Shown piece after piece: positions 8,987 to 28,257 of a stretch of 36,507 bases of DNA. Numbering within the stretch: the first letter of the stretch is position 1; every line of letters begins with the position of its first letter. The translations under genes were made by a program, and so were the position numbers. The notes beneath the pieces are model-generated. The model was not told the origin of the DNA. It was given only the letters and a program-made list of their open reading frames with translations, and searched no databases. Source of the stretch: a virus (taxonomy: Duplodnaviria; Heunggongvirae; Uroviricota; Caudoviricetes). The DNA lies in IMG/VR virus record IMGVR_UViG_2563366882_000002. The stretch is one strand, 5' to 3'.

Positions 8987-9727
8987 TCAGTTTTCTTTGA
9001 ATTTTTCACTTAATCGTTTCGTCAATACTTCGACAGATTCTTTGCGACCGGAGAACAAGTCATTGACGACGTACTCCATAATCTCAAAAGCATCCTCAAT
9101 GTCTTTGACTTTTACTTCATCGTAGGTATGGCTTCCGGCATTTCCTAAAAATTTAATTGCCATAAGAGGTCTTGAAAACGATCCGTATAATTCAGGTAGC
9201 ATCCCTAAACGGTGGTGTAGAGTTATGCGTTTGCCATTATCATTACGTTCAGCTACATCCATAGCGGTTAGCATTCTTTCAACTGAAATTCGAATTAGGT
9301 TTGCTGCTGCGCCAGGCTGTATTAGGAAAATGGAAAATGAGGCTTCAAGCGGTTCGGTAATTTCTTCTGGGCATTTTTCAGGTATTTCGAAAGGATGCAG
9401 TGATGGGTAAAAGGTGAAAGGTCTGTGCCATTGATAGTACTCAATATCATTTCTTTCTTCATCCCAACCTTGTTCCCATCCACTCTTACCAGTACAGGCC
9501 ACAACTTCACCACATTGCATTCTTGAACAGCGGGCCATGCAACTGAAAATAGATGAATCCATTTCTAGTTCAAACCAATCTTCACTGCGGAATTTTCGGG
9601 TATCATGTGTGTCATACGAGACGAAACTTTCTTTAATGATCTGTAGGGTTTTCTGATTGCAGTTAGGGCAGGGCCACTCAACCTGCATATCGTGGAAAAA
9701 CGCACCAGAGAGCTTGTGCACAGTCAT
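8987..9727 (-). CDS. Zn-ribbon + DUF4145-like protein, candidate abortive-infection/defence gene
   Basis: 246 aa; CPNC...CMARCSRMQCGE cysteine cluster; C-terminal IKFLGNAGSH...helical region resembling DUF4145 (from memory); AT-rich; sits at the P2 tin/old position. Confidence 0.45.
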   Translation of the reverse strand: MTVHKLSGAFFHDMQVEWPCPNCNQKTLQIIKESFVSYDTHDTRKFRSEDWFELEMDSSIFSCMARCSRMQCGEVVACTGKSGWEQGWDEERNDIEYYQWHRPFTFYPSLHPFEIPEKCPEEITEPLEASFSIFLIQPGAAANLIRISVERMLTAMDVAERNDNGKRITLHHRLGMLPELYGSFSRPLMAIKFLGNAGSHTYDEVKVKDIEDAFEIMEYVVNDLFSGRKESVEVLTKRLSEKFKEN

Positions 9728-10168: not shown

Positions 10169-11083
10169 ATGCCATACCAATTGGTAGAGCTTAGCCCCGT
10201 AGCTAACGATCTTGAACAGTTAGGAACCAAAGAGAAGTTTTGGTTCTATTTCTCCGATGACACTGTAAATTTGCAGTTGTTTAAGTACTCTAGGCCAGGT
10301 ACTGGCGAGCATTGGTCTGAAAAGTGTGCTGCTGAGTTATGTCATTTGCTTAACATTCCACATGCTAGCTATGATTTGGCGCGATACAATGGTCGATTCG
10401 GTGTGGTGACTCAGAATATCATTCCATCTGGTTTCCGGATGGTAATGGGAAATGAAGTGCTTCACAGTTCGACATTCGATTATCCTGGGCCTTTACAAGC
10501 CGGGGAAAAGCCGGTAAGGGTCAGAGAACACACTGTCACAAGGGTATTGGGTTGTTTGGATAGGGAATCTATCAAGCCTCCTCCGAGTGTATATGATCTA
10601 ACCGGACTAAATGCAGCAGATGTATTTTGTGGATATTTGATGCTCGATGCACTTGTGAGTAATCAAGATCGCCATCATGAAAATTGGGCGATCATGCTTA
10701 ACAATGAAACTGGTGAGCAGTTTTTGTGTCCAACATACGATCATGCCGCTAGTTTAGGAAGGGAGATGTTAGATGATGAGCGTAACGAACGGCTTAATAC
10801 TAAAGATAAAAATCGACAAATCCCATGTTTTGTAAGAAAAGCTCGCTCTGAGCTATTCAAAGCAAAAACTGATAAAAAGCCCTTGCTGACCGTTGAAGCA
10901 TTTCAACATGCAGTTGAAGGGAGAGTTGCCGCTCGCGACCATTGGTTAGGTAAGTTGAGCGTTTTAACAGAAGATTCCATTACAGATGTGTTTAACCAAG
11001 TGCCTTCATCGTGTATATCCGACAGTGCACGTAGATTTGCAACGTTAATGGTAATGGAAAATCGCAGAAGGTTACTAGAATGA
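10169..11083 (+). CDS. HipA-like Ser/Thr kinase (HipA_C-only, HipT-like short form)
   Basis: 304 aa; GTKEKFW, LVSNQDRHHENWAI and CPTYDHAASLG motifs in HipA order and spacing; AT-rich. Confidence 0.6.
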   Translation: MPYQLVELSPVANDLEQLGTKEKFWFYFSDDTVNLQLFKYSRPGTGEHWSEKCAAELCHLLNIPHASYDLARYNGRFGVVTQNIIPSGFRMVMGNEVLHSSTFDYPGPLQAGEKPVRVREHTVTRVLGCLDRESIKPPPSVYDLTGLNAADVFCGYLMLDALVSNQDRHHENWAIMLNNETGEQFLCPTYDHAASLGREMLDDERNERLNTKDKNRQIPCFVRKARSELFKAKTDKKPLLTVEAFQHAVEGRVAARDHWLGKLSVLTEDSITDVFNQVPSSCISDSARRFATLMVMENRRRLLE

Positions 11084-11820
11084 CTAATACAAACTCCGTT
11101 TACGTCGCATGGCAGGCACCAGATACCAGAGACTGGCATGTTGTTGGTAACTTGCAAGAGCGCAAATCGGGGTATGTTTTCAGGTATACCAAAGGTGCTC
11201 TTAAATCTACTAAATTTACAAAGTTTAGCGGCATGAGTGATGTTCGTGAAACTTATGTTTCGGAAGAATTGTTTCCTCTTTTTAAAAATCGCCTTTTATC
11301 ACCGAGACGTCCAGAGTATCCGAGTTTCATTAAATGGCTTGGATTTGAAGAAGATAAGGTAAATCCTATCGATATTCTTGCTCGCTCGGGAGGCTTACGA
11401 AGCACTGATCAGCTGCAGATTTTCAAAAAAATTGATGTTGATTCTGATGGTAACTTTGAGCATTTTTTCTTCTTACATGGACTTGGTTACTTAAATAGCT
11501 TAGCTAATGCTCGTGTATCTGAATTGAAACCGGGGCAAATTTTGCGTCTTTGCTTGGATCTTCAAAATGAATACGATGGGGATGCTGTTGTCGTTCGTGC
11601 AGATAAACCAGCTGAAATCGTTGGTTACTGCCCTAGGTATTTAAGTAATGATATCAAGAAGATGTTATTGGATGATCCAAAATCAATCACTTTAACGGTC
11701 GAAAAGATTAGCGATGATGCTCCTCATAACTATCGGTTATTATGTAAATTATCAGGAGTACTAAGCCAAGCCTGTCAATCGACGCTGATTCCTCAGGATG
11801 AGTTTGAACCTATTGAGTAA
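11080..11820 (+). CDS. HIRAN-domain protein, partner of the HipA-like kinase
   Basis: 246 aa; ATGA start/stop overlap with the kinase gene; C-terminal GLGYLNS...LRLCLDLQNEYDGDAVVVRADKPAEIVGYCPRYL resembles HIRAN. Confidence 0.5.
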   Translation: MTNTNSVYVAWQAPDTRDWHVVGNLQERKSGYVFRYTKGALKSTKFTKFSGMSDVRETYVSEELFPLFKNRLLSPRRPEYPSFIKWLGFEEDKVNPIDILARSGGLRSTDQLQIFKKIDVDSDGNFEHFFFLHGLGYLNSLANARVSELKPGQILRLCLDLQNEYDGDAVVVRADKPAEIVGYCPRYLSNDIKKMLLDDPKSITLTVEKISDDAPHNYRLLCKLSGVLSQACQSTLIPQDEFEPIE

Positions 11821-15650: not shown

Positions 15651-16709
15651 ATGAAGAAGAATACCCGCTTTGCTTTTAACGCTTACCTGCAGCAGCTGGC
15701 GCGTCTGAACGGTGTGGCAGTTGAAGAACTGTCCAGCAAGTTCACCGTGGAGCCGTCTGTGCAGCAGACGCTGGAAGACCAGATCCAGCAATCCGCCGCT
15801 TTCCTGACGCTGATTAACGTCACGCCAGTGACCGAGCAGTCTGGTCAGCTGCTGGGGCTGGGTGTTGGCAGCACCATTGCCGGAACCACTGATACCACCG
15901 CAAAAGAGCGTGAGCCTGTCGATCCGACGCTGATGGTCGATGTGGAATACAAATGCGAGCAGACCAACTTTGACACGGTGCTGACCTACGCGAAGCTGGA
16001 CCTGTGGGCGAAGTTTCAGGATTTCCAGGTGCGTATTCGTGACGCGATCGTGAAACGTCAGGCACTGGACCGCATCATGATCGGCTTTAACGGCGTGAAG
16101 CGTGCGAAAACCTCAAACCGTAGCGAAAACCCGCTGCTGCAGGATGTGAATAAAGGCTGGCTGCAGAAAATCCGTGAAGATGCACCGGATCACGTCATGG
16201 GCAGCACCACCACGGGCGGTGAAACCACACCGGGTGCGGTGAAAGTCGGGAAAGGTGGCGAATATGCCAACCTGGACGCCGTGGTGATGGATGCCGTCAA
16301 TGAGCTTATCGACGTGGTCTACCAGGACGATGACGATCTGGTGGTGATTTGCGGTCGTGAACTGTTGTCTGACAAGTATTTCCCACTGGTCAACAAAGAG
16401 CAGGAAAACAGTGAAAAACTGGCTGCCGATATGATCATCAGTCAGAAACGCATGGGTGGCCTGCAGGCGGTGCGTGCGCCGTTCTTCCCGCCGAATGCGC
16501 TGCTGATCACCCGTCTGGATAACCTGTCCATCTACTGGCAGGAAGATACCCGCCGCCGTTCAGTTATCGACAACCCGAAACGTGACCGGATTGAAAATTT
16601 TGAATCCGTTAACGAAGCCTATGTGGTTGAGGACTACCGCTGCGCCGCACTGGTGGAAAACATCCAGATTGGCGATTTCAGCGCCGCTGCAGCAGAAACC
16701 GGAGCGTAA
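15651..16709 (+). CDS. N: major capsid protein (P2 gpN-like)
   Basis: 352 aa vs P2 N about 357. Confidence 0.8.
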   Translation: MKKNTRFAFNAYLQQLARLNGVAVEELSSKFTVEPSVQQTLEDQIQQSAAFLTLINVTPVTEQSGQLLGLGVGSTIAGTTDTTAKEREPVDPTLMVDVEYKCEQTNFDTVLTYAKLDLWAKFQDFQVRIRDAIVKRQALDRIMIGFNGVKRAKTSNRSENPLLQDVNKGWLQKIREDAPDHVMGSTTTGGETTPGAVKVGKGGEYANLDAVVMDAVNELIDVVYQDDDDLVVICGRELLSDKYFPLVNKEQENSEKLAADMIISQKRMGGLQAVRAPFFPPNALLITRLDNLSIYWQEDTRRRSVIDNPKRDRIENFESVNEAYVVEDYRCAALVENIQIGDFSAAAAETGA

Positions 16710-16712
16710 TCC

Positions 16713-17363
16713 ATGAGCCTGAGTCCCGCACGGCAGCATCGCCTGCGCGTTCAGGCTGAACAGGCCGCCCGCGAGGGCGGCAGTGTTCGCCACGCATCGG
16801 GCTATGACCTGATGCTGCTGCAACTGGCGGAAGACCGCCGCCGTCTCAAGGGCGTTCAGTCCACGGTCAAAAAAGCGGAAATCAAGGTGGAGCTGCTGCC
16901 GAAGTACGCCGCCTGGGCAGAGGGTGTCCTGGCTGCCGGAGGCGCTCAACAGGATGACGTGCTGATGTACGTGATGCTGTGGCGCATTGATGCCGGAGAT
17001 TATGCCGGAGCGCTGGAGATCGGGCGTCATGCCCTGCGTCATGGCTGGGTGATGCCGCTGGGTAACCGCAACGTGCAGACCGTGCTGGCAGAGGAAATGG
17101 CAGACGCCGCGCAGAGCGCAATGCTTGCCGCCACCGGCTTTGATGCCGATCTGTTGCTGCAGACGCTGGAGCTGACAGACGGTCTGGATATGCCGGACCA
17201 GTCACGGGCGCGTCTGCATAAAGCGATTGGCGCTGTCCTGAGTGAAAGCAATCCGGCGTCCGCCCTTAATCATCTCAACCATGCGTTACAGCTCGATCCC
17301 CGCTGTGGCGTGAAAAAAGACAAACAGCAGCTGGAGCGCAGACTGCGCAATGACAGCCGCTGA
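16713..17363 (+). CDS. M: terminase small subunit (P2 gpM-like)
   Basis: 216 aa; synteny. Confidence 0.7.
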   Translation: MSLSPARQHRLRVQAEQAAREGGSVRHASGYDLMLLQLAEDRRRLKGVQSTVKKAEIKVELLPKYAAWAEGVLAAGGAQQDDVLMYVMLWRIDAGDYAGALEIGRHALRHGWVMPLGNRNVQTVLAEEMADAAQSAMLAATGFDADLLLQTLELTDGLDMPDQSRARLHKAIGAVLSESNPASALNHLNHALQLDPRCGVKKDKQQLERRLRNDSR

Positions 17364-17458
17364 CAGAACGTGCCCCCGCGCACGGGCGGCACGGGGTGGC
17401 GAAAGGCACAGCCTCATCAAAACCCCGTCCACCGCCCTCTATTTCAGGAGAAAGCAGC

Positions 17459-17923
17459 ATGAAGTTTGTTGCGCCAGAACAGGCACCGGAACAGGCGGAA
17501 ATCATCAGAAATACGCCGTTCTGGCCTGATGTGGACCTGTCGGAGTTTCGCAGTGTCATGCGCACTGACGGCACGGTGACTCAGCCGCGTTTAAAGCAGG
17601 TTGCCCTGTCGGCAATTTCGGAGGTCAACGCAGAGCTGTATGAGTTTCGCAGACGCCAGCAGATGCTGGGGTATGCCTCGCTGGCAGAGGTTCCGGCGGA
17701 ACAGCTGGACGGGAAAAGTGAGCGCATTCAGCACTATTTCAACGCGGTTTACTGCTGGGCACGCGCCATGCTCAACGAACGATACCAGGACTATGACGCC
17801 ACGGCATCCGGTGTGAAGCGAGGCGAAGAACTGGCGGAAGCCAGCGGTGATTTGTGGCGTGACGCCCGCTGGGCCATCAGCCGGGTGCAGGATGCGCCGC
17901 ACTGCACAGTGGAGCTTATCTGA
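17459..17923 (+). CDS. L: head completion protein (P2 gpL-like)
   Basis: start ATG 17459 after CAGGAG; the longer ORF start at 17396 lacks an RBS. Confidence 0.7.
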   Translation: MKFVAPEQAPEQAEIIRNTPFWPDVDLSEFRSVMRTDGTVTQPRLKQVALSAISEVNAELYEFRRRQQMLGYASLAEVPAEQLDGKSERIQHYFNAVYCWARAMLNERYQDYDATASGVKRGEELAEASGDLWRDARWAISRVQDAPHCTVELI

Positions 17924-18126
17924 TGAAAGTGCGTGCGTATCAGTATGACACGGTGGACGCGCTTTGCTGGCGTCATTACGGGCGCACGCAGGGTGTCACG
18001 GAGCAGGTACTGAAGGCAAATCCGGGGCTTGCCGAATACGGCCCCTTTTTACCTCACGGGCTGCAGGTGGAGCTGCCGGACATACCGACCACCACCACCG
18101 TGCAGACCGTCCAGCTATGGGACTGA
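17923..18126 (+). CDS. X: tail protein X
   Basis: 67 aa, identical length to P2 X. Confidence 0.65.
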   Translation: MKVRAYQYDTVDALCWRHYGRTQGVTEQVLKANPGLAEYGPFLPHGLQVELPDIPTTTTVQTVQLWD

Positions 18127-18129
18127 ATT

Positions 18130-18345
18130 ATGACGCTTGAGCGAATCAGCGCCTTTATCACGTATTGCATCGCCGTCGTGCTGGCCTGGCTGGGCGATTT
18201 GTCCATCAAGGATGCCTCAACGCTGGGCGGCCTGATGATTGGTGTGCTGATGCTGGCTATCAACTGGTACTACAAACACAAAGCCTACCAGCTTCTGCGC
18301 GACGGGCAGATCTCGCGGGAGGACTATGAATCCATCAATCGTTAA
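18130..18345 (+). CDS. holin (small two-TMD, pinholin-like)
   Basis: 71 aa, two hydrophobic segments, charged C-terminus, directly before the endolysin. Confidence 0.7.
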   Translation: MTLERISAFITYCIAVVLAWLGDLSIKDASTLGGLMIGVLMLAINWYYKHKAYQLLRDGQISREDYESINR

Positions 18346-18838
18346 ACGCTGCCTTGTCGGGGCCGTGCTGGCTATTGCTGCCACGCTGCCGGGTTTTCAG
18401 CAGCTTCACACCTCCGTGGAGGGGCTGAAACTGATTGCCGATTACGAAGGCTGTCGTCTGCAGCCGTATCAGTGCAGCGCGGGTGTCTGGACCGACGGCA
18501 TTGGTAATACATCGGGCGTCATTCCCGGCAAAACAATCACGGAACGACAGGCAGCAGAAGGGCTGATCTCCAACGTGCTGCGTGTGGAGCGGGCACTGGA
18601 AAGGTGTGTGAAGCAACAGCCACCACAGAAGGTGTATGACGCTACGGTGTCGTTTGCCTTCAACGTGGGGACGGGCAATGCCTGTAGTTCCACGCTGGTG
18701 AAATTGCTCAATCAGCGGCGCTGGGCGGATGCGTGCCGACAGTTGCCGCGCTGGGTTTATGTAAAAGGTGTGTTTAATCAGGGGCTGGATAACCGCCGTG
18801 CGCGGGAGATGGCCTGGTGTTTACAGGGAGCAAACTGA
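18326..18838 (+). CDS. endolysin, lysozyme-type with N-terminal signal-anchor (SAR) segment
   Basis: hydrophobic LVGAVLAIAATL near N-terminus; lysozyme-like EG...YEGCRLQPYQ...GVWTDGIGNT. Confidence 0.75.
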   Translation: MNPSIVKRCLVGAVLAIAATLPGFQQLHTSVEGLKLIADYEGCRLQPYQCSAGVWTDGIGNTSGVIPGKTITERQAAEGLISNVLRVERALERCVKQQPPQKVYDATVSFAFNVGTGNACSSTLVKLLNQRRWADACRQLPRWVYVKGVFNQGLDNRRAREMAWCLQGAN

Positions 18839-18839
18839 A

Positions 18840-19217
18840 ATGAAAAAGAAATTAATCAGCGGGCTGTTTCTGATGTTATGGATGGCGCTGTTAATCGCAG
18901 CAATGGTGTATCCGCAAGGGATCTTTCCGGTACTGGCAGCGTCCGGCGTTTGGGTAGCCTGTTTGCTGACATGGGCGGTAATTCCGGTAGCACTGGCTGC
19001 GTTAATTCAGAATGGCCCGCTCTGGCAGGAGTTAAGGGCATCTTTGCTGAAGACAATTACCCGAAAAGAAAACGTATTTATCTGTTGGGTGATGCGATTG
19101 CTGATTGTTGTAAGTCTCGCATGGACGGGGTGGGCTATTACCCTGGTCTTTTATCTACTGACCGTTATTGCCTTCTGGATCACCCGTAATCAGATGGCGC
19201 AACAGGTAGCAGCATGA
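18840..19217 (+). CDS. membrane protein in lysis cassette (LysA-like)
   Basis: about 125 aa from MKKKL with several hydrophobic helices. Confidence 0.5.
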   Translation: MKKKLISGLFLMLWMALLIAAMVYPQGIFPVLAASGVWVACLLTWAVIPVALAALIQNGPLWQELRASLLKTITRKENVFICWVMRLLIVVSLAWTGWAITLVFYLLTVIAFWITRNQMAQQVAA

Positions 19218-19642
19218 ACCGGTTGCTGCTGGTTGTGCTGGCGTTATTACTGGCGGCGCTGGGCTGGCAGACGTGGCGGCTGGCTGATGCCAGCCAGACC
19301 ATCAGCACGCAGGCAAACGAGCTGCAGAGCAAAAGCCAGGCACTGGCAAAGAGCAACAGCCAGCTTATCAGCCTGTCCATTCTGACTGAAACCAATAACC
19401 GGGAGCAGGCGCGGCTCTATGCCGAAGCAGAACAGACCAGCGCACAGCTGAGACAACGACAACGCCGGATCGAGGAACTGAAACGTGAGAACGAGGATTT
19501 ACGCCACTGGGCTGGTACTCCTTTGCCTGCTGACATTATCCGGCTGCGGGAACGTCCGGCACTCACCGGAGGTGCAGCTTACCGTCAGTGGTTGTCCGCG
19601 AGTGACGCCGTGTCGGCTGGAGCAGGCAGCACCGCGCACTAA
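19214..19642 (+). CDS. LysB, Rz-like inner-membrane spanin
   Basis: N-terminal TMD then coiled-coil-like Q/E/R-rich periplasmic domain. Confidence 0.6.
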   Translation: MNRLLLVVLALLLAALGWQTWRLADASQTISTQANELQSKSQALAKSNSQLISLSILTETNNREQARLYAEAEQTSAQLRQRQRRIEELKRENEDLRHWAGTPLPADIIRLRERPALTGGAAYRQWLSASDAVSAGAGSTAH

Positions 19643-19775
19643 CGGTGATCTGAATGCGTTGCTGGATGAAACGGAGGCCGCCTGGGCGGTCTGTGCAGAC
19701 AAAGTGGACATGATTATTGCGTGTCAGGAGCGAAACAGTGAACAAACCACAATCCCTGCGCCACGCCCTCAATAA
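19485..19775 (+). CDS. LysC, Rz1-like outer-membrane lipoprotein spanin
   Basis: lipobox LTLSGCG; overlaps the 3' part of LysB out of frame. Confidence 0.55.
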   Translation: MRTRIYATGLVLLCLLTLSGCGNVRHSPEVQLTVSGCPRVTPCRLEQAAPRTNGDLNALLDETEAAWAVCADKVDMIIACQERNSEQTTIPAPRPQ

Positions 19776-20169
19776 AGCGGTGCCTTATGTCCGCAATAAC
19801 CCGGACAAACTGCATCTGTTTGTGGATAACGGTTCGCTGGTTGCCACGGGGGCCAGCTCCATGTCATGGGAGTACCATTATACCCTCAACGTGGTGATTG
19901 AGGATTTCAGCGGCGACCAGAATCTGCTGATGGCCCCGGTTTTGCTGTGGCTGAGGGATAACCAGCCCGATGCCATCAATAACCCGGCGTTACGGGAAAA
20001 GCTATTCACCTTTGAGGTGGATATTCTGCGCAACGATGTCTGTGATATCAGCCTGAACCTGCAACTGACGGAACGTGTGCTGGTCAGCACTGACGGCAGT
20101 GTGTCGAGCGTTGAAGCTATAGCGGAACCTGATGCACCTGAAGAAATGTGGACGGTGAAACGTGGCTGA
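19738..20169 (+). CDS. R: tail completion protein R
   Basis: proposed GTG start 19738 after AGGAG; synteny. Confidence 0.55.
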   Translation: MNKPQSLRHALNKAVPYVRNNPDKLHLFVDNGSLVATGASSMSWEYHYTLNVVIEDFSGDQNLLMAPVLLWLRDNQPDAINNPALREKLFTFEVDILRNDVCDISLNLQLTERVLVSTDGSVSSVEAIAEPDAPEEMWTVKRG

Positions 20170-20608
20170 ACTGCAGAAGGTGGACGACTGGCTGAGTGCC
20201 TTGCTGGCGAATCTGGAACCAGCCTCGAGAAGCCGCATGATGCGCCAGCTGGCGCAGGAACTTCGCCGGACACAGCAGCAGAATATCAGGATGCAGCGCA
20301 ACCCTGACGGCAGCAGCTATGAACCGCGACGGGTAACAGCACGCAGTAAAAAAGGCCGTATCAAACGTCAGATGTTTGCAAAGCTGCGCACCACAAAATA
20401 CCTGAAAACTGCCGCCAGCACCGACTCTGCCAGCGTGCAGTTTGAAGGCAAGGTGCAGCGCATTGCCCGCGTTCACCATTACGGCCTGCGAGATCGCGTC
20501 AGTCGTAAGGGACCGGAGGTGCGTTACGCAGAGCGTCGCCTTCTGGGTGTAAATGATGATGTTGAGGCAATGACCCGCGACATGATTCTGCAATGGCTGG
20601 CGGGGTGA
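20162..20608 (+). CDS. S: tail completion protein S
   Basis: 148 aa vs P2 S about 150. Confidence 0.65.
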   Translation: MAELQKVDDWLSALLANLEPASRSRMMRQLAQELRRTQQQNIRMQRNPDGSSYEPRRVTARSKKGRIKRQMFAKLRTTKYLKTAASTDSASVQFEGKVQRIARVHHYGLRDRVSRKGPEVRYAERRLLGVNDDVEAMTRDMILQWLAG

Positions 20609-20612
20609 TCTT

Positions 20613-20630
20613 TGTATCAGCACTGATACA
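20613..20630. promoter_or_regulatory. Ogr-type late promoter element TGT-N12-ACA upstream of V
   Basis: TGTatcagcactgatACA in the S/V gap. Confidence 0.5.
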
Positions 20631-20676
20631 AGTTGCAGCACTGCCGCCTTTCTTCCCCTGATGGCAACCTTTCCCT

Positions 20677-21255
20677 ATGAACGCACAATTAACCGAAATC
20701 ATGCGCCTTATCACCAACCTGATCCGCACAGGGGTAGTCACCGAAGTGGATAGGGAAAACTGGCTTTGCCGGGTGAAAACGGGCGAGCTTGAAACCAACT
20801 GGATCAGCTGGCTGACGCTGCGTGCCGGGAATGCCCGTACATGGTGGCGACCATCGGAAGGTGAGCAGGTGGTGCTGCTGAGTCTGGGCGGCAATCTGGA
20901 AACCGCCTTTGCGCTGCCCGCTGTCTATTCGAATCAGTTCGCACCACCGTCGACGTCGGCGGATGCCTGCGTGACAGAACATCCTGACGGTGGCTGGTTT
21001 GAATACGAACCCGCCACCGGGCGCTGGTATGTCAGGGGCATCAAATCAATGGTCATTGAGGCTGCTGACAACATCACCATGAAAACCAGTGAGTTTGTAC
21101 TGGAGGCTGACCGCACGCGCATTAACAGCGAAGTGGTGATCAATGGTGGCGTTACCCAGGGCGGCGGAGCGATGAGTTCTAACGGGATCGTGGTTGATGC
21201 GCATCAGCATACTGGCGTCCTGAAAGGCGGCGATACAACCGGAGGCCCGGTATGA
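20677..21255 (+). CDS. V: baseplate assembly/spike protein V
   Basis: 192 aa; synteny. Confidence 0.75.
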   Translation: MNAQLTEIMRLITNLIRTGVVTEVDRENWLCRVKTGELETNWISWLTLRAGNARTWWRPSEGEQVVLLSLGGNLETAFALPAVYSNQFAPPSTSADACVTEHPDGGWFEYEPATGRWYVRGIKSMVIEAADNITMKTSEFVLEADRTRINSEVVINGGVTQGGGAMSSNGIVVDAHQHTGVLKGGDTTGGPV

Positions 21256-21611
21256 CGCTTTATAGCGGGATGAACAATACCAGCGGCAAAGTCATTACTG
21301 ATATTGATCATCTGCGCCAGTCGGTGCGGGACATTCTGCTGACACCGCAGGGTAGCCGTATTGCCCGCCGGGAATATGGTTCCCTGCTGTCTGCACTGAT
21401 AGATCAGCCACAAAATCCGGCATTACGCCTGCAGGTCATGTCGGCTGTGTATGTTGCACTGAGTCGCTGGGAGCCACGGCTGACGCTGGATTCCATCACT
21501 ATTAACAGCAATTTTGACGGTTCAATGGTGGTGGAGCTGACCGGACGGCGGAATAACGGTGTGCCTGTGTCCCTTTCAGTATCAACAGGAGCAGAGAATG
21601 GCAGTGATTGA
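21252..21611 (+). CDS. W: baseplate protein W
   Basis: 119 aa vs P2 W about 115. Confidence 0.75.
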   Translation: MTLYSGMNNTSGKVITDIDHLRQSVRDILLTPQGSRIARREYGSLLSALIDQPQNPALRLQVMSAVYVALSRWEPRLTLDSITINSNFDGSMVVELTGRRNNGVPVSLSVSTGAENGSD

Positions 21612-22506
21612 CCTTTCGCAGTTGCCTGCACCGCAGATTGTGGATGTGCCGGACTTTGAGACGCTGCTTGCCGAACGCAAGGCAGAATTTGTGGCGCTTC
21701 ATCCGAAAGATGAGCAGGAAGCAGTGATCCGCACGCTGGAACTGGAATCTGAACCCGTCACCAAATTGTTGCAGGAGAACGCTTACCGTGAGTTGCTTCT
21801 GCGCCAGCGCATTAATGAAGCCGCGCAGGCGGTAATGGTGGCTTACGCGATGGGCGGCGATCTTGACCAGATCGCTGCCAACTACAACGTGAAACGCCTG
21901 ACGGTGACGCCTGCTGATAATGACGCTGTGCCGCCCGTGGCAGCAGTGATGGAAAGCGATGAAGCGTTACGCCTGCGTGTGCCTGCAGCCTTTGAGGGGC
22001 TTTCAGTTGCGGGGCCAACTGCAGCTTATGAATTTCATGCCCGAAGCGCCGACGGTCGGGTGGCGGATGCCAGTGCAACCAGCCCGGCACCTGCAGAGGT
22101 GGTGCTGACTGTCCTTAGCCGCGAAGGCGATGGAACTGCAGAAAAAGACCTGCTGGACGTGGTGGAAAAAGCTCTGAACAGTGAGAACGTCCGCCCGGTG
22201 GCTGACCGTCTGACGGTTCGCAGCGCAGAAATCATCCCGTATCGCGTGGAAGCCACCATTTTTCTCTATCCGGGACCGGAAGCAGAGCCGGTAATGGCAG
22301 CGGCAAAAGCCAGCCTGCAGAAGTACATCGCCAGTCAGACGCGTCTTGGTCGGGATATTCGCCGTAGCGCCATCTTTGCCGCCCTGCATGTTGAGGGTGT
22401 GCAGCGTGTGGAGCTGGCTTCTCCTCTGGCGGATGTGGTCCTGAACAAAACACAGGCGGCATCATGTACGCAGTGGAGCGTAACCAACGGAGGAACGGAT
22501 GAATAG
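21598..22506 (+). CDS. J: baseplate protein J
   Basis: 302 aa from MAVIDLS, identical length to P2 J; CAGGAG RBS. Confidence 0.8.
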   Translation: MAVIDLSQLPAPQIVDVPDFETLLAERKAEFVALHPKDEQEAVIRTLELESEPVTKLLQENAYRELLLRQRINEAAQAVMVAYAMGGDLDQIAANYNVKRLTVTPADNDAVPPVAAVMESDEALRLRVPAAFEGLSVAGPTAAYEFHARSADGRVADASATSPAPAEVVLTVLSREGDGTAEKDLLDVVEKALNSENVRPVADRLTVRSAEIIPYRVEATIFLYPGPEAEPVMAAAKASLQKYIASQTRLGRDIRRSAIFAALHVEGVQRVELASPLADVVLNKTQAASCTQWSVTNGGTDE

Positions 22507-23104
22507 TCTGCTGCCACCGGGTTCAACTTCACTGGAGCGCCGACTGGCGCAAACCTGTAGCGGGATTTCTGATCTGCAGGTGCCGCTGCGTGACTTGTGG
22601 AGTCCGGCTACCTGTCCGGTCAGCTTCCTGCCTTATCTCGCCTGGGCGTTCTCTGTGGATCGCTGGGACGAGGGCTGGACAGAAAGCGTCAAACGCCAGG
22701 TAGTGAAGGATGCTTTTTATATTCATCAGCATAAAGGAACCACCAGTGCCGTGCGGCGGGTGGTGGAACCGTTCGGATTCCTGATCCGCATTATTGAGTG
22801 GTGGCAGACCGGAGAAACACCGGGCACGTTTCGCCTGGATATCGGCGTGCAGGACCAGGGCATCACTGAAGATACCTATCTGGAACTTGAGCGGCTGATA
22901 AGCGATGCCAAACCATGTAGCCGTCACATGATCGGCATGTCCATCAATCTGCAGACCAGCGGTCCGCATTGGGTGGGGGCCGCCAGCTATCTTGGCGAAG
23001 AAATCACGATCTATCCGTATATCAACGAAACAATTATTTCTGGCGGCACCGCGCATGAAGGCGGGGCGGTCCATGTTATTGACACAATGAGAGTGAATCC
23101 ATGA
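22499..23104 (+). CDS. I: baseplate protein I
   Basis: 201 aa; synteny. Confidence 0.75.
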   Translation: MNSLLPPGSTSLERRLAQTCSGISDLQVPLRDLWSPATCPVSFLPYLAWAFSVDRWDEGWTESVKRQVVKDAFYIHQHKGTTSAVRRVVEPFGFLIRIIEWWQTGETPGTFRLDIGVQDQGITEDTYLELERLISDAKPCSRHMIGMSINLQTSGPHWVGAASYLGEEITIYPYINETIISGGTAHEGGAVHVIDTMRVNP

Positions 23105-24237
23105 GCACAAAATTTTATACCCTGCTGACGGATATTGGCGCGGCGAAACTTGCCAGCGCCGCCGCGCTCGGTGTGCCGCTAAAAATTACCCATATGGCGG
23201 TCGGCGATGGCGGCGGAGTATTGCCAACGCCAGACTCAAAGCAGACTGCACTGGTAAATGAGAAACGCCGGGCTGCGCTGAATATGCTCTATATCGACCC
23301 GCAGAACAGCAGCCAGATTATTGCCGAACAGGTGATCCCTGAAAACGAGGGCGGTTGGTGGATACGTGAAGTGGGCTTGTTTGATGAGTCCGGGGCATTG
23401 ATTGCCGTGGGCAACTGCCCGGAAAGCTATAAGCCGCAACTGGCTGAAGGTAGCGGGCGCACTCAGACCGTGCGCATGGTGCTGATTACCAGCAGCACGG
23501 ACAATATCACCCTGAAAATCGACCCTGCCGTAGTGCTGGCAACCCGCAAGTATGTGGATGACAAGGCACTGGAGCTGAAGGTGTACGCGGATGATCAGAT
23601 GGCAAAACATCTTGCCGCACCGGACCCGCATTCACAGTATGCACCCAAAGAAAGTCCGACGTTTACCGGGACACCCAAAGCGCCAACGCCAGCCGCAGGG
23701 AATAACACCACGCAGATTGCGACCACCGCGTTTGTTCAGGCGGCTCTGACGGCTCTTATTAATGGTGCGCCAGCCACGCTGGACACGCTGAAAGAAATAG
23801 CCGCAGCCATTAACAATGATCCGAAATTCAGTACCACCATTAACAATGCGCTGGCACTGAAAGCGCCGCTGTCGAGTCCGGCACTCACCGGAACGCCAAC
23901 CGCACCTACTGCGGCACAGTCGGTCAACAATACACAGATTGCCACCACGGCATTTGTGAAATCGGCGATTGCGGCAATGGTGGGTTCTGCACCTGCGGCA
24001 CTGGATACACTGAACGAACTGGCGGCAGCGCTGGGGAATGACCCGAACTTTGCCACGACAATGCTTAATGCGCTGGCAGGTAAACAACCGCTGGACAATA
24101 CGCTGACTAATTTGAGTGGAAAGGATGTAGCTGGTCTTCTCACATACCTTGGTTTGGGAGAAGCGGCAAAACGGGATGTGGGAACAGGGGAAAATCAGAT
24201 ACCGGATATGGCTTCTTTTGCCAGTGGTGATGCATGA
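23101..24237 (+). CDS. H: tail fibre protein H, constant part plus first 21 codons of the invertible segment, ending at an in-frame TGA
   Basis: 378-aa ORF with repeated NNTQIATTAFV tail-fibre-like motifs; P2 H position. Confidence 0.75.
   Translation: MSTKFYTLLTDIGAAKLASAAALGVPLKITHMAVGDGGGVLPTPDSKQTALVNEKRRAALNMLYIDPQNSSQIIAEQVIPENEGGWWIREVGLFDESGALIAVGNCPESYKPQLAEGSGRTQTVRMVLITSSTDNITLKIDPAVVLATRKYVDDKALELKVYADDQMAKHLAAPDPHSQYAPKESPTFTGTPKAPTPAAGNNTTQIATTAFVQAALTALINGAPATLDTLKEIAAAINNDPKFSTTINNALALKAPLSSPALTGTPTAPTAAQSVNNTQIATTAFVKSAIAAMVGSAPAALDTLNELAAALGNDPNFATTMLNALAGKQPLDNTLTNLSGKDVAGLLTYLGLGEAAKRDVGTGENQIPDMASFASGDA
24137..24162. other. left recombination site of invertible segment (gix/hix-like)
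   Basis: TTCTCACATACC-TT-GGTTTGGGAGAA, two 12-bp imperfectly inverted half-sites around a 2-bp core, resembling hixL. Confidence 0.55.
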
Positions 24238-24498
24238 ACGGGTTTTCCCAAAGGTCCTATACGGCAGTATGGTCGGGGGGCTGTTACGCGGAGATTATCG
24301 AAGCAAACGATGAGTTATCCAGTAACCATCCCATTTCCTACACTTGTGGACTGGGCCGTGCTAACTACAACTGGTGTTGGTGGTGTAATTGTAAGGGGTG
24401 TGCCGGACTTTGCTATGACCAGCAAATCACAATTATATACCAGTGTTAGCTGCGTATACAGAGCTGAAACAGTCAGATACGCAGTGTCGAGTTATTAG
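24238..24498 (+). other. in-frame continuation of H variable domain (Hv) beyond the opal stop
   Basis: same frame as H, 87 codons to TAG 24496..24498; translation aligns with the opposite-orientation Hv'. Confidence 0.45.
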
Positions 24499-24581
24499 GT
24501 TGCGTGCGGTGTTTGTGTATAACTTTGATTTGGTTCATTTAATCGAACAAAGATGTTTACTGTGCAGGTCTAAACGCTGAT

Positions 24582-24779
24582 ATGCCTGTTGACATTGTTG
24601 AGAAAAGTAAATCCTTGGACTGGGAATTATTAGACGGACAGCAGGTAGGGGGTAAAATTATCAGGTCATTTATAACTGGACCACCAGTAGGAAAAACTCG
24701 GATTACCGATGATGACGGGCGTCCTGCGAGGGCGGGTATGCATTTACCTACGCATGACGAGAATATCAAAATTGATTGA
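24582..24779 (+). CDS. small protein paired with Hv (possible fibre assembly/chaperone, U-like position)
   Basis: 65 aa; shares P.DIVE...II.SF..G.PV.K.R.IDDDGR with the minus-strand ORF at 25147..25335. Confidence 0.4.
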   Translation: MPVDIVEKSKSLDWELLDGQQVGGKIIRSFITGPPVGKTRITDDDGRPARAGMHLPTHDENIKID

Positions 24780-24877
24780 TGGGAGAAACAACTGCTAGTT
24801 AATATGACCAACACAGACATGGAAAGACTGCCATGCTCCGGGAAAGCGAATAAAGATCGTCTAGCAGTCGAGACACT

Positions 24878-25000
24878 GGCGGATCATGAGTTTAGGCTGG
24901 ATGATCTAGACACAGTGTAGCTGGTTGATTATTTCGGTCCCCGAGAGAATCGACGGGCTACGCCTTCGCCAACTAAGGCAAGCAAAACTCATGATCCGCC
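24878..25000. repeat. perfect 16-bp inverted repeat (ggcggatcatgagttt / aaactcatgatccgcc) around a 91-bp spacer
   Basis: exact reverse complements at 24878..24893 and 24985..25000, between the two convergent small ORFs. Confidence 0.6.
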
Positions 25001-25146
25001 GATTCCTCGCCTGTCAGTCCTCCTATTGCCTATTTACTCGAGCCATATTTTTTTTTCATGTATGTGTTAGCCTGATCAATTAGTATTAGTCTCTCCCATT
25101 AGGCAATTTTGATAAGCTCTGCATGCGTAAGTGACTGCATTTGCGC

Positions 25147-25335
25147 CTACTCAGCCCGCCCGTCATCATCGATCGTCCGGGATTTCCGTACTGGCAGACC
25201 ATCTTCAAATGAACTGATTATATTACGACCCTCCTCCTGTGCAGCTAATAAATCCTTGCACACTTCTTTACATATCTCAACAATGTCAGCAGGGAAGACA
25301 GTATTAATCCTTGCGATGTAAACATATTTAGTCAT
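25147..25335 (-). CDS. small protein paired with Hv' (paralog of 24582..24779)
   Basis: about 63 aa from MTKYVY; C-terminus ...RKSRTIDDDGRAE paralogous to the plus-strand small ORF. Confidence 0.4.
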   Translation of the reverse strand: MTKYVYIARINTVFPADIVEICKEVCKDLLAAQEEGRNIISSFEDGLPVRKSRTIDDDGRAE

Positions 25336-25439
25336 ATAAGAGAACCTGATTAAAGATACTCCCATACAGCCCTCGAACTGTAATTCATGGATCTTTCGTA
25401 TTTGATTATTGCTCTCCTGGAAGCGGAGCCAACAATGAT

Positions 25440-25727
25440 TTATATCTGGCATTTGGCGATCTTCACGAATTCCCCTACACCCCCTGCAAACATACCAGCC
25501 TCAGACGTTGTATGAGGCATGGCCCACTCCACTTGTGAAGGATTTGGGAATGTTACTGTGATAGTCACTGTATGGGTTGATGATGTCGGCGCAATCCCCC
25601 CCCGAATAATCTGCCCGATTGTACGTTTGTGAAATCCCGTCGATCCAAGACCACTGGCAAATGCCGCCATATCCGGAATTTGGTTTTGCCCGTTACCTAC
25701 ATTCCGTTTTGCCGCTTCTCCCAAACC
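25440..25727 (-). CDS. alternative tail-fibre C-terminal segment Hv', joined to H constant part after inversion
   Basis: encodes GLGEAAKRNVGNGQNQIPDMAAFASG... homologous to the current H end, open to stop at 25440. Confidence 0.5.
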   Translation of the reverse strand, partial: GLGEAAKRNVGNGQNQIPDMAAFASGLGSTGFHKRTIGQIIRGGIAPTSSTHTVTITVTFPNPSQVEWAMPHTTSEAGMFAGGVGEFVKIAKCQI

Positions 25728-25741
25728 AACGTTTATGAAAA
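25716..25741. other. right recombination site of invertible segment (gix/hix-like)
   Basis: TTCTCCCAAACC-AA-CGTTTATGAAAA; inner half-site identical (as inverted repeat) to that of the left site. Confidence 0.55.
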
Positions 25742-25796
25742 TGCAGAGATAATGGCTAACTGGCATCATCCCCGGTTTTTATTCAGGGGATTGATC

Positions 25797-26363
25797 ATGC
25801 TTATTGGCTATGTACGCGTGTCAACAAATGACCAGAACACCGATTTGCAACGTAATGCACTGAACTGCGCGGGATGTGAGCGGATTTTTGAGGACAAAAT
25901 CAGTGGTACTAAGTCCGACAGACCGGGGCTTAAAAAACTGCTCAGGACACTATCGGCAGGTGACACACTGGTTGTCTGGAAGCTGGACAGGTTGGGGCGC
26001 AGTATGCGGCATCTTGTTACTCTGATAGAAGAGTTGCGCCAGCGCGGCGTGAATTTCAGAAGTCTGACTGACAGTATTGATACCAGTACCCCAATGGGCC
26101 GTTTCTTTTTTCATGTCATGGGTGCCCTGGCTGAAATGGAACGCGAACTGATAGTTGAACGTACCAGGGCAGGGCTGGCTGCAGCTCGTGCTAAAGGCAG
26201 AGTAGGTGGACGCCGTCCTAAGTTGACTACCGAACAGTGGGCACAGATTGGACGTTTACTCGAGGCCGGAGAATCAAGACAGCGTATTGCACTGATTTTT
26301 GATGTGGGCGTTTCTACCATTTATAGAAAATTTCCGGCGAATGAGAACAATGAATCGCCCTGA
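25797..26363 (+). CDS. serine DNA invertase, Hin/Gin/Pin family
   Basis: 188 aa from MLIGYVRVSTNDQ (catalytic Ser motif); C-terminal HTH-like region; start after AGGGGA RBS. Confidence 0.85.
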   Translation: MLIGYVRVSTNDQNTDLQRNALNCAGCERIFEDKISGTKSDRPGLKKLLRTLSAGDTLVVWKLDRLGRSMRHLVTLIEELRQRGVNFRSLTDSIDTSTPMGRFFFHVMGALAEMERELIVERTRAGLAAARAKGRVGGRRPKLTTEQWAQIGRLLEAGESRQRIALIFDVGVSTIYRKFPANENNESP

Positions 26364-26411
26364 GTCAGCATTATTTTGATTTTTCCTGTAAGCGGACAAA
26401 TACCGTTATTT

Positions 26412-26429
26412 TGTGTGAATAACGACACA
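26412..26429. promoter_or_regulatory. Ogr-type late promoter element TGT-N12-ACA upstream of FI
   Basis: TGTgtgaataacgacACA about 80 bp upstream of FI. Confidence 0.5.
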
Positions 26430-26505
26430 ACTGCGCTTAGCTGTTTGTCAGGCACAATCACTTCAACATAGGGCGAAGCCTAATCCAATCAGGAGGTTCG
26501 CCACT

Positions 26506-27678
26506 ATGGCTCAGGATTACCACCACGGAGTGCGCGTTGTTGAAGTCAACGAAGGCACCCGATCCATTACCACGGTGAGCACCGCCATCGTGGGTATGGT
26601 CTGCACGGGCGATGATGCCGATGCAAAAATGTTTCCTCTTAATAAACCCGTGCTGATCACTGATGTGCTGACTGCCAGCGGTAAAGCGGGTGAGTCCGGT
26701 ACGCTGGCCCGTTCGCTGGACGCCATCGCTGACCAGGCAAAACCCGTGACCGTTGTTGTGCGTGTGCCGCAGGGTGAAACGGAAGAAGAAACCACGACCA
26801 ATATCATCGGAGCAGTGACCGCTGAAGGTAAAAAAACAGGCATGAAAGCCCTGTTATCTGCCCAGTCACAGCTCGGCGTTAAACCGCGCATTCTCGGCGT
26901 GCCAGGCCACGACACCAAGGCGGTAGCTACTGAGTTGCTGAGCGTGGCGCAAAGCCTGCGTGGATTTGCTTACCTGTCAGCGTATGGCTGCAAGACGGTA
27001 CAGGAGGCGATCACTTACCGTGAAAACTTCAGCCAGCGCGAAGGGATGCTGATCTGGCCTGACTTTACTGGCTGGGACACGGTGCTGAATGCCGAAGCAA
27101 CGGCATATGCCACCGCCCGTGCGCTTGGTCTGCGCGCCAAAATTGACGAGCAGACCGGATGGCACAAAAGCCTGTCCAACGTGGGCGTGAACGGTGTCAC
27201 CGGAATTTCTGCTGATGTGTTCTGGGATCTGCAGGACCCGGCAACCGATGCAGGTCTGCTGAACCAGAACGACGTCACCACGCTTGTGCGTAAAGACGGT
27301 TTCCGCTTCTGGGGTTCCCGCTGCCTGAGTGATGACCCGCTCTTTGCCTTCGAAAACTACACCCGCACGGCGCAGGTGCTGATGGACACGATGGCAGAAG
27401 CACACATGTGGGCGGTGGATAAACCGCTTAACCCGTCGCTGGCCCGCGACATTATCGAGGGTATCCGCGCCAAAATGCGCAGCCTGGTCAGTCAGGGCTA
27501 TCTCATTGGTGGTGATTGCTGGCTGGATGAGTCGGTGAACGACAAAGACACGCTGAAAGCCGGAAAACTCACCATCGACTACGACTACACGCCAGTGCCG
27601 CCACTTGAAAACCTGATGCTGCGTCAGCGCATCACCGATCAGTACCTGGTGAATTTCTCTAGCCAGGTCAGCGCGTAA
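26506..27678 (+). CDS. FI: tail sheath protein FI
   Basis: 390 aa vs P2 FI about 396. Confidence 0.8.
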
Positions 27679-27687
27679 GGGGACAAC

Positions 27688-28203
27688 ATGGCTTTACCAC
27701 GCAAATTAAAACACCTGAACCTGTTTAATGACGGGAACAACTGGCAGGGGATCGTTGAGTCGCTGACGCTGCCGAAATTCACCCGCAAATATGAGAAGTA
27801 TCGCGGCGGCGGAATGCCGGGTGCAGTGGATGTGGATCTGGGGCTTGATGACAGTGCGCTGGACACAGAATTTTCCATTGGTGGCACTGAACTGCTGCTG
27901 TTTAAACAGATGGGCAAAGCCACGGTGGATGGCATCCAGTTGCGCTTCACCGGCTCTATCCAGCGTGACGATACCGGAGAAGTGCAGGCCGTGGAGCTTG
28001 TGGTGCGTGGACGTCACAAAGAAGTGGATTCCGGCGAGTGGAAGACGGGCGAAAGCAACACCACCAAAGTGACCAGTACCAACAGCTACGCGAAGCTGAC
28101 TATCAATGGTGAGGTGCTCTATGAAGTGGACCTTATCAACATGGTGGAAATTGTGGACGGTGTGGACCTGATGGAAGCGCACCGCAACGCCCTCGGCCTC
28201 TGA
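27688..28203 (+). CDS. FII: tail tube protein FII
   Basis: 171 aa vs P2 FII about 172. Confidence 0.8.
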   Translation: MALPRKLKHLNLFNDGNNWQGIVESLTLPKFTRKYEKYRGGGMPGAVDVDLGLDDSALDTEFSIGGTELLLFKQMGKATVDGIQLRFTGSIQRDDTGEVQAVELVVRGRHKEVDSGEWKTGESNTTKVTSTNSYAKLTINGEVLYEVDLINMVEIVDGVDLMEAHRNALGL

Positions 28204-28257
28204 TGTATCTGAACGGCGCGGAATGCCGCGCCAGAACCCAATTTACAGGACAGCAAA

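Follow-up and report, generated by a model that had tools for sequence, protein, structure and literature searches.

Among the closest described relatives of the tail fiber locus reported here, which lies in a P2-like prophage of Escherichia coli (IMG/VR record IMGVR_UViG_2563366882_000002), are the P segment of the e14 element of E. coli K-12 with its invertase PinE (stfP-tfaP/tfaE-stfE), and the G segment of phage Mu with its invertase Gin. The window that we analyzed is the whole 36.5-kb stretch of this record, coordinates are window positions unless another genome is named, and the labels L002 to L019 denote comparison loci in other genomes. The e14 layout is the same as that seen here, with a fiber gene, a chaperone, an inverted chaperone, an inverted fiber tip, and the invertase; PinE is 85% identical to the invertase of the window, the right recombination sites match at 26 of 26 positions, and the left inner half-site and TT core are common to both. 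However, e14 is a lambdoid remnant whereas the element here is a P2/186-type myovirus prophage, and its cassette differs from that of e14 in having two Gp53-like_C tips with chaperones of 147 and 131 amino acids (aa). The Mu switch likewise uses 26-bp sites with a 2-bp core, located within the fiber gene and in inverted orientation, with the invertase gene immediately downstream, but the Mu segment is ∼3 kb compared to 1.58 kb here, its variable tips are >300 aa compared to ∼120 aa, and its core is TC/GA rather than TT/AA. The same gene order (J, I, H, invertible Tfa/Tfa′/Hv′, invertase, FI) is present in Escherichia phage Cartapus (LF82), the Klebsiella Kp48xx phages, and the P2-like prophages of enteropathogenic E. 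coli (EPEC) strain E2348/69; the flanks of these invertase-bearing Peduoviridae are 90 to 97% identical in DNA and only the cassette pair differs, although the copy here is scrambled in the assembly. Phage P2 itself matches in the tail/baseplate module and in gene order; it carries a fixed H-G pair, fun(Z) lies upstream of its FI gene, and the stretch of P2 that was examined (16000 to 23500) contains no invertase.

We are confident that the locus is a standard Pin/Gin-type invertible tail fiber switch, and that its interior, as deposited, is a coin-flip consensus of the two orientations. A preliminary description made from the sequence had recognized a host range switch of the Mu G segment, P1 C segment, and e14 type, although with unusually short variable domains (∼87 aa) and unusually small companion proteins (∼63 aa). 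The assignment as a switch is borne out by the invertase, the sites, and the cassette of tips and chaperones, but the unusual features are artifacts and the arrangement is not new. The switch is already known; annotated copies of the same cassette, intact and 98 to 99.9% identical, are found in many complete genomes of E. coli.

The mixing of orientations is evident base by base. The cassette of the E. coli PK5074 prophage (Hv-Tfa147/Tfa131-Hv′) served as the reference, here called S, with R as its reverse complement, and both were compared with window positions 24151 to 25727. The window agrees with S at 68.5% of positions and with R at 65.9%, but with one or the other at 99.56%, and the mutual agreement of S and R is only 35%. 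Among 496 mismatches to S, 98.6% are the R base at the same index, and the 1,021 informative positions divide into 530 that follow S, 489 that follow R, and 2 that follow neither. The succession of S and R choices is that of independent draws, with 497 runs compared to an expected 509 (z = −0.8). The zone from 24233 to 25652, within which each base is either that of the true cassette or the one at the same index in its reverse complement, is a consensus artifact in the deposited record, because base-by-base alternation between a sequence and its own reverse complement is not the work of any biological process; the presence of this mosaic as real DNA in a cell is effectively excluded. Window positions 19101 to 28237 are 100% identical to the NCBI assembly GCA_000352785.1 (scaffold KB733145.1), and the scrambling is therefore a property of that record. 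Blockwise recombination between the orientations was considered and rejected, as coin flips would give the run lengths observed, and a fixed rule for the choice of base, by alphabetical order or base preference, was also sought, but only weak preferences and no rule were seen.

The mixing is responsible for the broken frames and small genes of the interior. The H reading frame is open through both cores (LGLGEAAKR...), in agreement with the preliminary description, but in the deposited sequence it meets an in-frame TGA on the plus strand at 24235 to 24237, 28 codons after the core, and H is truncated to 378 aa. The T of this codon is common to both orientations, the G comes from one and the A from the other, and the true codons at this position are TGG in S and TCA in R. 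There are nine internal stops across the four expected gene frames, eight of which, the TGA of H among them, combine bases of the two orientations into codons absent from either true one, with the ninth (24918) being the codon of the other orientation. None of the interior open reading frames (ORFs) as deposited has a Pfam tail fiber or chaperone domain, NCBIfam assigns neither the tips nor the chaperones to a specific family, and public gene calls place a single 72-aa ORF across the 1.5 kb; the mirror-image gene sets proposed earlier are thus not present as read, their frames being broken by the mosaic. Both the early stop in H and the 63-aa companions are products of this mixing of orientations, and the truncated 378-aa H is found on one public contig only.

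Placing either S or R between the window's own flanks restores a complete cassette, with the domains of the tips and chaperones assigned on intact homologues. The constant N-terminal part of H (23101 to 24150, plus strand), of the P2 gpH type (Pfam Phage_tail_fib PF12571; E = 8e-65) and 96.5% identical to H of the PK5074 prophage, runs to the crossover core and continues in frame in both orientations, giving a 473-aa H with tip A or a 471-aa H with tip B, together with the two chaperones and the unattached alternative tip. In orientation S, the variable C terminus Hv-A (24151 to 24522, plus strand; Gp53-like_C PF21882, E = 2e-13) is followed by the 147-aa tail fiber assembly chaperone (24543 to 24986, plus strand; Caudo_TAP PF02413, E = 2e-30), and on the minus strand are the second, 131-aa chaperone (24958 to 25353; Caudo_TAP, E = 2e-24) and the alternative C terminus Hv-B (25362 to 25727; Gp53-like_C, E = 5e-14), which is joined to H after inversion. 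The mirror arrangement, with each tip followed by its own chaperone, holds only after this correction. The small ORFs of the deposited sequence are readily placed, as the 65-aa ORF at 24582 to 24779 is a fragment of the 147-aa chaperone and the ∼62-aa ORF on the minus strand is a fragment of the 131-aa chaperone; both align to the N-terminal parts of these proteins and are ended by chimeric stops. The short variable domains and small companions of the preliminary description are thus fragments of a chimeric consensus.

The cassette is bounded by two 26-bp recombination sites, each consisting of 12-bp half-sites around a 2-bp core. The left site, TTCTCACATACC TT GGTTTGGGAGAA (24137 to 24162, core TT at 24149 to 24150), and the right site, TTCTCCCAAACC AA CGTTTATGAAAA (25716 to 25741), are in inverted orientation, with imperfect half-sites and cores that are reverse complements of each other. 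When the half-site consensus TTNTCNNAAACC was required in both halves, a scan of the entire 36.5 kb gave exactly two matches, which are these two sites. Direct comparison with the Mu gix and e14 sites shows the right site to be that of e14 throughout, whereas the left site agrees with its e14 counterpart in the inner half-site and core. Both sites have the Mu gix architecture, that of the left one being the architecture of gixL. From the core inward there is a perfect 26-nucleotide (nt) inverted repeat (24149 to 24174 and 25704 to 25729), with none expected by chance in shuffled sequences, that runs on imperfectly to ∼77 nt; its left arm (24149 to 24225) codes for a conserved LGEAAKR..IPDM..FAS linker and its right arm extends from 25653 to 25729. 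This repeat was missed by an automated repeat search and was established by pattern search and direct comparison. The hix-like sites with identical, inverted inner half-sites, as recognized in the preliminary description, are therefore all present, and comparison with known sites places them with e14 and Mu.

The 188-aa serine DNA invertase (25797 to 26363, plus strand) is of the Pin/Gin type and has an N-terminal resolvase domain (PF00239, E = 2e-53) and a helix-turn-helix domain (HTH_7, PF02796; E = 1e-15). It is 77% identical to Mu Gin, and among crystal structures it matches Gin (PDB 3UJ3, E = 2e-92) far better than gamma-delta resolvase (E = 2e-34); the catalytic Ser9, within the motif YVRVST, aligns with Ser9 of Gin in 4M6F. 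The Hin residues Gln151, Arg154, and Leu155 and the basic residues at 47, 48, and 51 are reported to be conserved uniquely in the enhancer-dependent invertases (PMC3798978), and their equivalents are present here as Q150, R153, and L154 and as K46, K47, and R50, with an offset of one in the alignment to 1HCR. By these sequence features the protein is a member of the Fis/enhancer-dependent Hin/Gin/Cin/Pin subfamily of small serine recombinases, consistent with its first recognition as a Hin-family enzyme. The exact protein is recorded in 1,011 blocks of the public collection.

A candidate Fis-dependent recombinational enhancer is located within the 5′ end of the invertase gene (25818 to 25881), where an enhancer search had been suggested. 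It is composed of two 15-mers of the form G-N13-C, GTGTCAACAAATGAC (25818 to 25832) and GCGCGGGATGTGAGC (25867 to 25881), with centers 96.5 and 145.5 bp from the right site, and the motifs GATTTG and GTAATG lie between them. Mu gin has both 15-mers at equivalent positions in the gene, and the geometry is compatible with that of the Hin enhancer (PMC3798978). A strict Fis motif filter, which requires an A/T-rich center, selects only the first 15-mer, and the second was placed by its position relative to Mu gin.

By homology with Hin and Gin, two invertase dimers would bind the 26-bp sites within the H coding sequence, and the sites would synapse on the Fis-bound enhancer in the 5′ end of the invertase's own gene. 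Cleavage at the 2-bp core, rotation, and strand exchange would flip the ∼1.58-kb segment, presumably fusing one or the other of the Gp53-like tips, each with its own Caudo_TAP chaperone, in frame to the constant H sequence, and the phage may thereby alternate its receptor specificity. In the deposited assembly, the two orientations, which are of equal length and share their anchoring flanks, are mixed base by base into a coin-flip consensus, and this destroys all four reading frames and creates the spurious stops and small ORFs.

Both orientations are represented among related genomes. The 1,577-bp cassette (98 to 99.9% identical) is in the S orientation in L009 and L010 and flipped in L003 and L004, and the flipped gene order is also seen in L002 and L008. 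Junctions of H with the two types of tip are continuous in 52 and 16 complete genomes, respectively. Beside an invertase identical to that of the window, L013 and L014 carry one 1,889-bp cassette as exact reverse complements (99.8%). These comparisons between genomes are indirect evidence that inversion occurs, and Goldberg et al. have shown by sequencing and PCR that loci in P2-like prophages of EPEC phase-vary (PMC4272514). We note that L017 (GCA_000458955.1, KE700796.1; locus 1 to 2970), also with the identical invertase, has three half-site matches (952 on the minus strand, 1043 on the plus strand, and 2920 on the minus strand) and near-palindromic cassettes (Tfa200, Tfa147, Gp53-like / Gp53-like, Tfa147, Tfa200, Collar tip). 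This is either a genuine multisite shufflon-like locus or an assembly artifact with both orientations placed end to end; a multisite shufflon-like locus has been described for one EPEC P2-like prophage (PMC4272514).

The mix most likely arose from a culture with both orientations at close to 1:1, and with both orientations in the sequenced DNA the invertase would therefore be active. We consider it likely that the interior is a 52:48 record of population heterogeneity preserved in a public consensus, and that, in the culture used for sequencing, the invertase was switching at equilibrium. Several observations weigh against this account of the locus. The mixed template is deduced from the consensus alone, and no base preference rule accounts for the choices made. 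The repeat arms (24151 to 24232 and 25653 to 25727) are unmixed, with 26 of 26 informative positions following one orientation, which a simple 1:1 pileup does not predict. Ordinary mapping of short reads would not place the two orientations on top of each other in register; candidates for the step responsible are the flattening of an assembly bubble with equal-length paths and, in gap closure, the direct sequencing of a PCR product of mixed orientation. The enhancer, moreover, is assigned only by its position and its similarity to Mu gin, and the center of its second 15-mer is G/C rich.

A source other than a switching culture is conceivable but improbable, in which two near-identical P2-like prophages with cassettes in opposite orientations were collapsed by the assembler; the interior would still be an artifact, but it would be silent as to invertase activity. 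Several such loci are often present in one E. coli genome (median, 1 place per genome; maximum, 12), and in PK5074 itself two prophages contain the same cassette, one in each orientation relative to H. However, the prophage here is within a 2.46-Mb scaffold with unique host flanks and the truncated H is on a single contig, whereas an assembly would usually be interrupted at a collapsed repeat of 33 kb, and scrambling would be expected in other parts of the prophage wherever the two copies differed. The flanks, in contrast, are a clean match to relatives, and the region from the invertase to the sheath is 100% identical to L013.

That the interior is real DNA, a dead switch decayed by random point mutation, is exceedingly unlikely, despite a first impression in its favor. 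The interior aligns without gaps and over its full length to the invertible cassettes of complete E. coli genomes at only 68 to 70% identity, compared to 90 to 97% for the flanks, and there are no indels over 1,577 nt. Its differences from S are spread evenly across codon positions with a transition-to-transversion ratio of ∼0.5, and this even spread, the ratio of ∼1:2, and the nine stops are the pattern of random substitution rather than of diverged genes. With its 68% identity to intact cassettes, stops in every frame, and absence of codon position bias, the interior was initially read as either decayed by random mutation or artificially mutated, a reading that was dropped after the match to the public assembly and the two-orientation test. 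Random decay would yield the R base at about one-third of the mismatches, compared to the almost complete agreement observed, and it fits poorly with the lack of indels in 1.4 kb at 32% divergence and with a sequence unique to one assembly. A genuine miniature cassette with ∼87-aa receptor-binding tips and ∼63-aa novel chaperones has just as little to recommend it, since, although ORFs of about these sizes exist and the frame is kept across both cores, H ends at 24235 in the present orientation and the small ORFs are N-terminal parts of chaperones ending at chimeric stops, with no Pfam match and almost nothing in the public gene calls.

The element carrying the corrected switch is an E. coli prophage of the P2/186-like (Peduoviridae) type, integrated beside ybjL, with a host flank (ybjL-ybjM-grxA) that is 100% E. 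coli. By Pfam, the P2 gene order and hallmark proteins are present (gpA, Q/P, lysis, R, S, V, W, J, I, H, FI, FII, E/E′, T, U, D, and ogr), and Peduoviridae phages are similar to the window at the DNA level. The repressor is of the CI type (Phage_CI_repr and Phage_CI_C), unlike P2 C, indicating 186-like immunity. The tail sheath gene FI (26506 to 27678, plus strand) marks the P2 fun(Z) position, which is occupied here by the invertase, as it also is in Cartapus and in many Peduoviridae of Klebsiella and E. coli, and both this placement and the P2-type affiliation were correctly recognized at the outset. L019 (GCA_025988985.1; locus 3001 to 6567) has the identical invertase directly upstream of ogr and ybjL. 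Genes for sheath, tube, and tape measure are not called there, and the locus resembles what a deletion would leave of this prophage at its ybjL integration site.

Elsewhere in the window, the regions 1 to 2024 and 4884 to 5855 include, besides the repressor, an integrase truncated by the window start and a Dam-like D12 adenine methyltransferase upstream of gene A. A cargo hotspot (10169 to 11820 on the plus strand and 8987 to 9727 on the minus strand) separates replication gene A from the portal gene and contains a two-gene candidate defense pair identified by PADLOC, PDC-M03A (E = 2e-122), which has a weak HipA_C kinase-like match, and PDC-M03B (E = 3e-93), which has a HIRAN domain. The hotspot also codes for a divergent DUF4145 protein with a weak match to PD-T7-4.

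The annotation of these invertible fiber genes is unreliable even where the sequence is correct. In L007, L009, and L010, all complete RefSeq E. coli genomes, the Prokaryotic Genome Annotation Pipeline (PGAP) calls H as an "incomplete" N-terminal pseudogene with a separate gp53-like domain-containing protein, and yet the H ORF of L009 runs uninterrupted over 473 aa. In L003 (E. coli strain 1613; locus 3700 to 4893), the cassette is 99.9% identical to that of PK5074, and H is annotated in two pieces, as a 207-bp hypothetical protein gene and a 912-bp tail protein gene, suggesting a frameshift or a sequencing error.

These observations are a caution in the reading of public assemblies, in which 1.4 kb of nonexistent sequence at an inverton has produced a truncated fiber protein and spurious small ORFs that could pass for novel miniature receptor-binding domains or chaperones, as they did in the preliminary description. 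The artifact is nevertheless exactly reversible and reports on switching in culture. If this interpretation is correct, its signature, in which each base is that of a sequence or of its reverse complement at the same index, would be searchable in draft assemblies, and could reveal active invertons together with corrupted annotations without recourse to reads. Pin/Gin-type tail fiber switches are common in the P2-like prophages of E. coli and Klebsiella, where they are already annotated and have been shown experimentally to invert.

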